A stretch of 64,000 bases of DNA from Escherichia coli (GCF_001677475.2 NZ_CP015229.1), one strand, 5' to 3'. Positions 42,101 to 45,100 are shown, counted from the first letter of the stretch. Program-made: the numbers.

Positions 42101-45100
42101 ATTTAATGCTGGCCACCAGCGCTATAATGCATTTAAAAAATTCGTCAGTGAGATATCGGAGATCAGCGCAAATGATATCAATATGACGATTAAAACCGGG
42201 CAATCCAGACATGAAAATGTTATCTCTATAAATATGAATGATGCAATTCCTCGTGATGAAAAAGGGATCACCGTCCGAATAGATAATATTAATGGAAAGA
42301 AAAGCAACTCTAATTTGTCAGATGTTTTTATTCCCTATGTAAATACATTTTTCGACCTCAAAAATAAAATACTCAGGATGAAAATTGAACTGACTGAAGG
42401 TAGTGGTTTTTCTAAAAGTCTTTCTGACAGTCAGATTGAGATGCATATTCTGAGGAATGTTAATTCGCTAAACGTTGGCGAGAAATTGAATGATGATAAT
42501 CTTGCATATCATTCTATATTCACTAACGAATTCTCTGTTATTATTCCGCCATCCTATTATGATGCGACTTCTGTAGTAAACGCCAATAATGGTGTGAGAG
42601 AAAAACTATTTGAAAGTGATAGTAAAGTTAAAGATATCGTCGATGAAATGTCTAATCATGATGTGGAGAGCGAAAAAGATATATTTGTCATCGGAGGAAT
42701 GATAGAAAAACTGGATTCTCTGGTAGACGAATCTTTCAATGAAAATACTGATAACATACAAACAGTAAAAGATTTGTTAACGCAATTAACTGATGGCATG
42801 GAACTCTTCGCGCTGCGGGACATAGTGGCATTCCCATCGTCCATAATAGCAAAATTATTAAAATCCCCACTTAATAGCGATCATGAACTTGTTATGCGCG
42901 CATTGGATACGTATCTGTGCTACTTCAGAAATAAAAATCTGAGTAACGATGCGGAAATAATAAACTTTTTCCATGCTCTCTTTTTAAAGAGACCAGAGTT
43001 GATGGTTTCTGAAAATTATAGATTTATTCAATTTATTGATTTGCTTTTTGAAAACGGAAGTATTGAAGAGAAAAACTTAGCATTTGGCCTTTATCACAAT
43101 TATCAGGTATTACCTGAAATAAAACAATTCGTTACTGAAGAAATAAAGTTGAATTTCAATGAGCAGCAAGGGTTGTTAGATAAAGATAATAAATGTTATA
43201 TCCTGTTATCATCCGATAACTCTGGGCGAGTAATGCGCTTATCGCACCAGGCGTTAATCTCAATGCTTGAGCCAGAGGTTAAGAAAAAGACTATCTGGAA
43301 TAATTACTCTATATATCCATCTTTGCAGGATACCCATGAAGATGTCAGAGATGATCCAGAAACGATTTGTACGCGTGCATTTCCTTTATTTGCAAAAGGA
43401 TGGGAATATGCGCAGAAAAATAAGAAACACCAATTGATTCTCAATGCTCTTGGATTGAAAGGTTATATTCGTGATGTATTTATGTCAGCAATAATGCGAA
43501 AAACAGACTTTGTGCCAGAATCGGATAATCAACCGACAGAATTTAAATCATTATTTTCCTCTTTGATGACCGATTCAGACCAATGGCAACAGCATACTCT
43601 GAAAGATAAACATTACGCTAATCTATTAACGATGCTGGATCTCAAAGAGGCCAGTGAAAGTGATAAGTCTAAAATATTTTTCTGTCTGTCTGCCATATTT
43701 GCAAATATTTCTCATAGTAATGTCTTTTACGGTATTCCTGATGCGTCAAAAATTTTAAAACGTTATGCATTTGCTTTATTGGCGAAAGCTTATTCTTTAG
43801 ATGAAAGTATGATAAGCAGTCAAACTTTTAATACATACAAAACGGTATTGCTTGATTTCAATAATCTGTCTAATGAAGAGGCCAACCAGTTGCGTATAAG
43901 TTCGTTATATCGTGATATGGTCCGCTACGCACAATATCGTTTTTCTAAAGTTTTATCCGAGTGGACGCCAGACGCATGGCTGTAAAGATCCCAACAGCAT
44001 AATGGCATTGATGGCCCTGGCTCAGGCCAGGGCGGGCAATACCGGTTCCTGCGAAGCGATGACGGCGGCAAGTGTAACCACGAAATGCGGTATCACTTGC
44101 TGTTTTCTGCCCTGAAGACTGGCGCTCACTGTGCCGTCGAACTTTCAATCAAATATATTACGATAGGGCGTGTTTGCGAGCCGCTTTCCAGAAACAGAAA
44201 AACCATTACCCCTGAAAACCGAAAAATGCCACAATATTGGCTGTTTATACAGTATTTCAGGTTTTCTCATGGCATTAACCGCCGCGCTTAAAGCGCAAAT
44301 TGCCGCCTGGTATAAGGCGCTTCAGGAACAGATCCCCGACTTTATTCCCCGTGCGCCGCAGCGGCAGATGATTGCGGACGTCGCCAAAACGCTGGCCGGA
44401 GAAGAAGGGCGGCATCTGGCGATTGAAGCCCCCACCGGCGTTGGGAAAACGCTCTCCTATTTGATCCCCGGCATCGCCATTGCCCGCGAAGAGCAAAAAA
44501 CGCTGGTGGTGAGTACCGCCAACGTGGCATTGCAGGATCAGATTTACAGCAAAGATTTACCGCTGCTGAAAAAGATCATTCCCGATCTTAAATTCACTGC
44601 CGCTTTTGGGCGTGGGCGCTACGTTTGCCCGCGCAATCTGACGGCGCTCGCCAGCACTGAACCCACGCAACAGGATCTGCTGGCGTTTCTTGACGACGAA
44701 CTGACGCCGAATAATCAGGAAGAGCAAAAACGTTGTGCGAAGCTGAAGGGCGATCTCGATACTTATAAATGGGATGGTCTGCGCGATCATACTGATATCG
44801 CTATAGATGACGATCTCTGGCGTCGTTTAAGTACCGACAAAGCCAGCTGCCTCAACCGCAACTGTTACTACTATCGTGAATGCCCGTTTTTTGTCGCTCG
44901 TCGGGAGATTCAGGAAGCGGAAGTGGTGGTGGCAAACCATGCGCTGGTGATGGCGGCGATGGAAAGCGAAGCCGTATTGCCTGACCCGAAAAATTTACTG
45001 CTGGTGCTGGACGAAGGTCATCACCTGCCGGATGTGGCGCGGGATGCGCTGGAGATGAGCGCCGAAATCACCGCGCCGTGGTATCGGCTACAGCTGGACT

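Follow-up and report, generated by a model that had tools for sequence, protein, structure and literature searches.

LexA operators of the gammaproteobacteria, canonically those of uvrB, recA, umuDC and sulA, follow the pattern TACTG(TA)5CAGTA, a 20-bp imperfect palindrome placed over a promoter. The operator of Escherichia coli dinG departs from this pattern. It has TTG-N10-CAG in place of the CTG-N10-CAG core that marks an E. coli-type SOS box, and despite this core it is a documented exception: in PMC8265657 it is treated as a non-canonical yet functional SOS box. The same paper describes the box, with TTG and not CTG, as experimentally characterised, citing Lewis and Mount (1992), and attributes to that study (J Bacteriol 174:5110) both the 'asymmetric dinG operator' and the binding of LexA to the K-12 operator. 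In PMC3009722, MEME recovers the box upstream of a UV-induced dinG/ybiB transcript, and the site is entered in Table 4. Other literature presents dinG and ybiB as a single co-transcribed operon controlled by LexA. The heterology index of dinG is given as 8.6 in PMC11228462, where the gene stands among the classic SOS genes with induction of 3.2-fold and 1.7-fold. The Salmonella dinG box, 14 nt upstream of the gene, has a heterology index of 10.08, and induction by nalidixic acid is 10.6-fold (PMC8072944).

We analysed dinG and its upstream region in a 64,000-nucleotide stretch of an E. coli genome (GCF_001677475.2 NZ_CP015229.1), referred to here as the window. The plus strand reads TATTGGCTGTTTATACAGTA at 44235–44254, an imperfect palindrome of 20 bases with the form TTG-N10-CAG. 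A first-pass annotation of the window had placed a non-canonical TTG-N10-CAG box at these positions, about 15 nt upstream of dinG; the sequence is exactly as it had stated, the upstream placement is correct, and the gap between the end of the box and the ATG at 44269 is 14 nt. The two halves of the palindrome are unequal. Read directly from the sequence, the right half, ATACAGTA, agrees with the consensus half-site at nine of ten positions. The left half, with TTG in place of CTG, is weak and agrees at six of ten. No second copy was found in the window even when up to three mismatches were allowed, and none of 100 shuffled sequences gave a match. Downstream lie dinG (44269–46419, plus strand; an in-frame ORF supported by the K-12 and RefSeq annotations), encoding DinG, a DNA-repair protein and ATP-dependent DNA helicase of 716 residues with the Pfam domains Helicase_C_2, DEAD and DEAD_2, and ybiB (46447–47409, plus strand; ORF and annotation). 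The 20-mer, its 14-nt distance from the gene and the downstream order dinG–ybiB are all as in K-12. Sequence identity and the naming of the site in the literature confirm 44235–44254 as an already described, ordinary feature, the published asymmetric LexA operator of E. coli dinG, and the 20-mer is very probably a genuine LexA operator of the dinG-ybiB operon.

The first-pass annotation had named two checks on its claim: scoring with a LexA matrix, and alignment with the K-12 dinG promoter, where divergence across the site would speak against it. For the former we built a symmetrised position weight matrix (PWM) from 17 published non-dinG sites (Table 4, PMC3009722). The dinG site scores 14.5 bits and ranks second among all 20-mers in the window. 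The top score, 24.2 bits, belongs to the canonical uvrB box AACTGTTTTTTTATCCAGTA at 22328–22347, which has the CTG left trimer and was itself part of the training set; the CAG right arm, the ten-base spacer and the overall palindrome are common to the two boxes. When each of the 17 genuine sites was left out in turn, the scores ran from 7.2 bits (polB) to 27.9 bits, so the dinG site falls within the range of functional sites. A score below that of uvrB is in line with the intermediate heterology index, 8.6, given in the literature. Our own index for the box, 11.4–12.8, derives from a different reference set, the 17-site table, and is not comparable with the published value. Sites of at least 14.5 bits are expected by chance 0.14–0.20 times per 64 kb, or 3e-4 times per 100-bp promoter region, and about 13% of 64-kb windows would contain one. 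Taken on its own the matrix is thus suggestive and its significance for the dinG box moderate; what makes the case decisive is the position before dinG together with exact identity to a characterised operator. The third-best match in the window, TACTGGATGCATTACCGGTA (46316–46335, 12.9 bits, CTG-N10-CGG), falls in the 3'-terminal part of dinG, 111 nt short of the ybiB ATG, and has the same sequence in K-12. It could be a chance match or a weak internal site.

Alignment of the window with K-12 MG1655 by blastn gives two collinear blocks, 38002–41365 and 44174–49000. Viewed base by base, 44174–44340 is 100% identical to K-12, the SOS box included, and no divergence from the K-12 promoter appears across the site. 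The 95 nt preceding the dinG ATG (44174–44268) are therefore the same in the two strains at every base. The right breakpoint lies at 44173/44174 and precedes the box by 61 nt and the ATG by 95 nt. The first-pass annotation had expected it between about 43990 and about 44230, an interval that contains this step. It had also put the box about 250 bp from the right boundary of the island; measured from the edge of the shared sequence the distance is 61 nt, and the earlier figure corresponds to the 249 nt that separate the espX2 stop codon (43985) from the box. In a spread sample of 30 genomes, 25 that lack espX2 have the first base of their match at query position 475, corresponding to window position 44174.

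On the left side, sequence in common with K-12 ends at 41365, just beyond rhlE (40003–41364, plus strand; ORF, annotation and blastn). The intervening 2808 bp of the window, 41366–44173, stand where K-12 has 737 bp with ybiA on the minus strand, and the replaced K-12 DNA includes the 23–24 nt of the ybiA-dinG spacer nearest ybiA. Beyond −95 the two strains differ in their neighbours: K-12 has the divergent ybiA, and the window has a cassette with the co-directional espX2. Acquisition of DNA beside dinG had been proposed in the first-pass annotation. A low-GC cassette with a virulence gene is indeed present; relative to K-12, however, it is a replacement of ybiA and not a simple insertion. Further downstream, at 48825–48862, 38 bp match, in inverted orientation and at 92%, the spacer between rhlE and ybiA of K-12 (L001 4351–4388); they are probably a REP-type repeat.

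The gap between rhlE and dinG has at least four alternative contents among E. coli genomes. A full ybiA is found in about 3430 E. coli genomes, espX2 in 541, and a PaaA2-like antitoxin with a RelE/ParE toxin in 325 and also in E. whittamii. LF82, TUM13064 and E. albertii provide examples of a truncated ybiA, which is the sole further content seen; about 1,100 genomes that match the dinG flank fall outside the ybiA, espX2 and toxin-antitoxin counts. When window 41366–44173 was compared with its counterparts in other loci (L001 4239–4975, L052 10339–11385 and L088 4560–5095), every form inspected rejoined the window sequence at −95 relative to the dinG ATG. The ybiA, truncated-ybiA and toxin-antitoxin forms agree with one another over four more bases, as far as −99. 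Several other genera have no gene in the gap, and their rhlE stop codon precedes the dinG ATG by about 95 nt. A tblastn search of the retrieved loci placed YbiA beside dinG in K-12 and, in truncated form, in E. albertii, and nowhere else. For these two reasons we rejected ybiA as the family-wide ancestral state of the gap.

Two genomes have the dinG SOS box split at its middle by an ISL3-family element (L089 2088–4035, E. coli TUM13064; L090 4007–5385, E. coli AHB21). The insertion site is equivalent to window 44241–44248, with an 8-bp target duplication, CTGTTTAT. The elements are ISEc53, with a ClbS/DfsB gene upstream of the transposase, or ISKox3, and the insertion parts the left half-site and the putative −10 element from dinG.

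The cassette at 41366–44173, the 'island' of the first-pass annotation, is delimited by the blastn breakpoints against K-12. Its GC content is 0.33–0.36 over 41500–44000, compared with about 0.53 in the flanks, and 541 of 5421 complete E. coli genomes carry it; this atypical composition and presence/absence polymorphism are the marks of horizontal acquisition. Signatures of mobility are lacking. Neither direct repeats nor terminal inverted repeats were found at the cassette ends, 41366 and 44173, and its sole long ORF is espX2, with no integrase or transposase. The cassette acts like an alternative allele of the rhlE-dinG gap and not like an element with mobility of its own. The gene espX2 (41973–43985, plus strand; ORF and RefSeq annotation) encodes a type III secretion effector of 670 residues, which is 93.7% identical in amino acid sequence to the O157:H7 RefSeq 'type III secretion system effector EspX2'. 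Its residues 536–669 match Pfam SopA_C, a SopA-like catalytic domain (E = 7e-15). The espX2 locus of O157:H7 (ECs0876) and those of other espX2-positive strains have the same order, rhlE-espX2-dinG-ybiB, and the same junctions.

Between the espX2 stop codon and the breakpoint lie 188 GC-rich base pairs (43986–44173). This segment occurs in all 541 espX2-type genomes, once in each, and in no others. It therefore belongs to the cassette, and we ruled out that it is core DNA or a relic of ybiA. It contains, at about 44014–44033, a perfect 8-bp hairpin, GCCCTGGC-TCAG-GCCAGGGC. A 15-nt resemblance between 44002–44016 and the start of dinG (family D12) fades after 9 nt and was taken as chance. The best match to window 41300–44300 among 5426 complete E. 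coli genomes is just 98.3% identical, and identity across the cassette tail varies between 90% and 98% in the 541 carriers, a greater divergence than in the adjoining, invariant dinG promoter. The low best match and the spread among carriers suggest a polymorphism of long standing and not a recent gain of the cassette.

The replacement of ybiA by a gene that reads toward dinG raises an alternative to fully preserved regulation. SOS control may have been kept in part, with read-through from the cassette, the gain or loss of upstream promoter elements in the changed DNA beyond −95, or both, making dinG expression partly independent of LexA. espX2 lies on the plus strand in the same direction as dinG, and its stop codon precedes the dinG ATG by 283 nt; the ybiA of K-12 is divergent. 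The loss of the 23–24 nt of spacer next to ybiA is a further change upstream of the promoter. A simple terminator scan of 43900–44320, which spans the espX2-dinG interval, called none. Against read-through, a stable hairpin followed by a T-run, TGTTTTCTG, is predicted at 44064–44111 on the plus strand, a segment included in that scan. The RNA fold of 43980–44180 (201 nt) has an energy of −75.9 kcal/mol (z = −3.45), and none of 200 shuffled sequences was as stable. We tentatively regard this hairpin and T-run as a candidate intrinsic terminator of espX2, situated between espX2 and the dinG promoter. As to changed DNA beyond −95, the sequence from −95 to the ATG is identical in K-12 and in four other inspected locus forms, which argues that it comprises the complete promoter module. 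We found no report of dinG expression in an espX2-type strain; an RNA-seq paper on O157:H7 SMX-TM gives espX2 and not dinG. Partial escape from LexA is unlikely on this evidence. The simplest reading is that SOS control of dinG is intact, because all of the sequence from −95 to the ATG is unchanged. The first-pass annotation had stated this outright. The unchanged promoter sequence is in keeping with it, and we infer from that identity that regulation in the window strain equals that in K-12.

The 95-nt module (44174–44268, plus strand) common to all inspected locus forms appears to hold promoter, operator and leader. A consensus sigma-70 promoter scan of 43900–44320 found no promoter, and the placements of the −10 and −35 elements and of the transcription start are inferred from a looser custom scan together with cross-species conservation. 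In the custom scan the best hexamer pair with a TG motif includes TGcCACAAT at 44227–44235 (plus strand), a putative extended −10 that shares its final base with the start of the SOS box. A motif of the form TGnCA[C/G/A]AAT directly adjoins the box in 79 of 79 Enterobacteriaceae-type loci. A possible weak −35, TTACCC, lies at 44206–44211 on the plus strand, 18 nt from the putative −10, and a Shine-Dalgarno-like triplet, AGG, at 44259–44261 on the same strand. An Rfam scan of 43900–44350 at E <= 1 returned no match. The canonical boxes sit over a promoter; the dinG box adjoins the putative −10 and ends 14 nt before the ATG.

Conservation of the box and its surroundings is extensive. Within E. 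coli, 5402 of 5421 complete genomes have the 60 nt at 44215–44274 at 100% identity, and a search of complete E. coli genomes for a canonical CTG version of this 60-mer gave no full-length match. The module is identical at 95 of 95 positions in K-12, PCN033, O157:H7 and LF82, where identity at dinG third-codon positions is 0.93–0.94. It is likewise 95/95 in E. albertii, where third-codon identity has fallen to 0.84, and 94/95 in E. whittamii, where it is 0.83; the one change in E. whittamii is at position 3 of the box. A module so nearly invariant beside diverged third-codon positions indicates strong purifying selection.

We extended the comparison across species by anchoring on the N-terminal coding sequence of DinG in species-representative genomes (84 loci), a procedure that presupposes no box. 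In 79 Enterobacteriaceae species an asymmetric box precedes the dinG ATG by 13–16 nt. The boxes of Salmonella, Citrobacter, Klebsiella, Kluyvera, Kosakonia and others match that of the window in position and at 19 of 20 bases, and their central spacer, GGCTGTTTAT, is nearly invariant across genera. The difference is at position 3, which is G in 76 species (GTG-N10-CAG, the form found in the species-representative Salmonella), T in two (E. coli and E. albertii), A in one (E. whittamii) and C in none. From this distribution, the weak left half-site is old and common across the Enterobacteriaceae, and the E. coli TTG is a state specific to its lineage, at a position where apparently any base but the consensus C is accepted. 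At five Erwinia and Pantoea loci (L008, L030, L042, L056 and L085) a canonical box, TACTGTGTAAAAATACAGSC, is found instead, 23 nt upstream of the dinG ATG. The different position of this box, in an upstream region of different organisation, suggests that LexA control of dinG persists where the promoter differs.

The box overlaps the putative −10 and transcription start, and its conservation has a second possible source. The block could be held constant by constraints on promoter, start and leader, or by another factor that recognises the inner palindrome CTGT-N4-ACAG, with LexA in a minor role and the left half-site not really used. The near-invariance of the spacer GGCTGTTTAT across genera is in keeping with this, since LexA constrains spacer bases weakly, as is the free variation of position 3 among G, T and A. 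A minor role for LexA is, however, difficult to reconcile with the published binding of LexA to the operator and the induction of dinG by DNA damage in both E. coli and Salmonella, with a right half that matches nine of ten consensus positions, or with the canonical box that Erwinia and Pantoea keep upstream of dinG in a differently organised region. We consider this explanation quite improbable. The idea that 44235–44254 resembles a LexA site by chance and regulates nothing in this genome has next to nothing to recommend it: the matrix score alone would allow for it, at 0.14–0.20 expected sites per 64 kb, but the site is exactly identical to a characterised operator, precedes the same gene at the same position in 79 species and is fully conserved in 5402 of 5421 E. 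coli genomes, and these conservation data effectively exclude such a coincidence.

With 44235–44254 taken as the LexA operator of dinG, its arrangement and the published work on the identical K-12 sequence point to a likely mechanism. A LexA dimer would bind the imperfect palindrome through a near-consensus right half and a TTG left half, and TTG in place of CTG would make the binding intermediate in strength. The operator begins at the last base of the putative extended −10 and would cover the expected transcription start near 44242–44244, where bound LexA would occlude RNA polymerase. Upon DNA damage, RecA-stimulated self-cleavage of LexA would free the promoter and permit a modest induction of dinG and ybiB. 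A right half near consensus paired with a weak left one is in keeping with an intermediate heterology index and a modest induction, as published. Since the espX2 cassette stops 61 nt before the operator and 95 nt before the ATG, the whole module on which this mechanism would depend is, base for base, that of K-12.

A broader reading joins the two sides of the breakpoint. The rhlE-dinG gap may be a hotspot of cassette exchange whose edge is pinned at −95/−99 by the strongly selected module, in which box position 3 is the single base that varies freely, and the dinG LexA operator may be deliberately weak and maintained so by selection across the Enterobacteriaceae. We put this forward as a tentative proposal, its chances slightly short of even.

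The result for the dinG box leaves the current understanding of LexA regulation unchanged. Its use is as an anchor for annotation: dinG-ybiB in an espX2-positive strain carries the standard SOS operator, and the right edge of the espX2 cassette is fixed to one base step, 44173/44174. For specialists in the SOS regulon it is of modest interest that an old weak half-site was never repaired to CTG, and that the module containing it marks the sharp boundary of a locus with multiple alternative contents.
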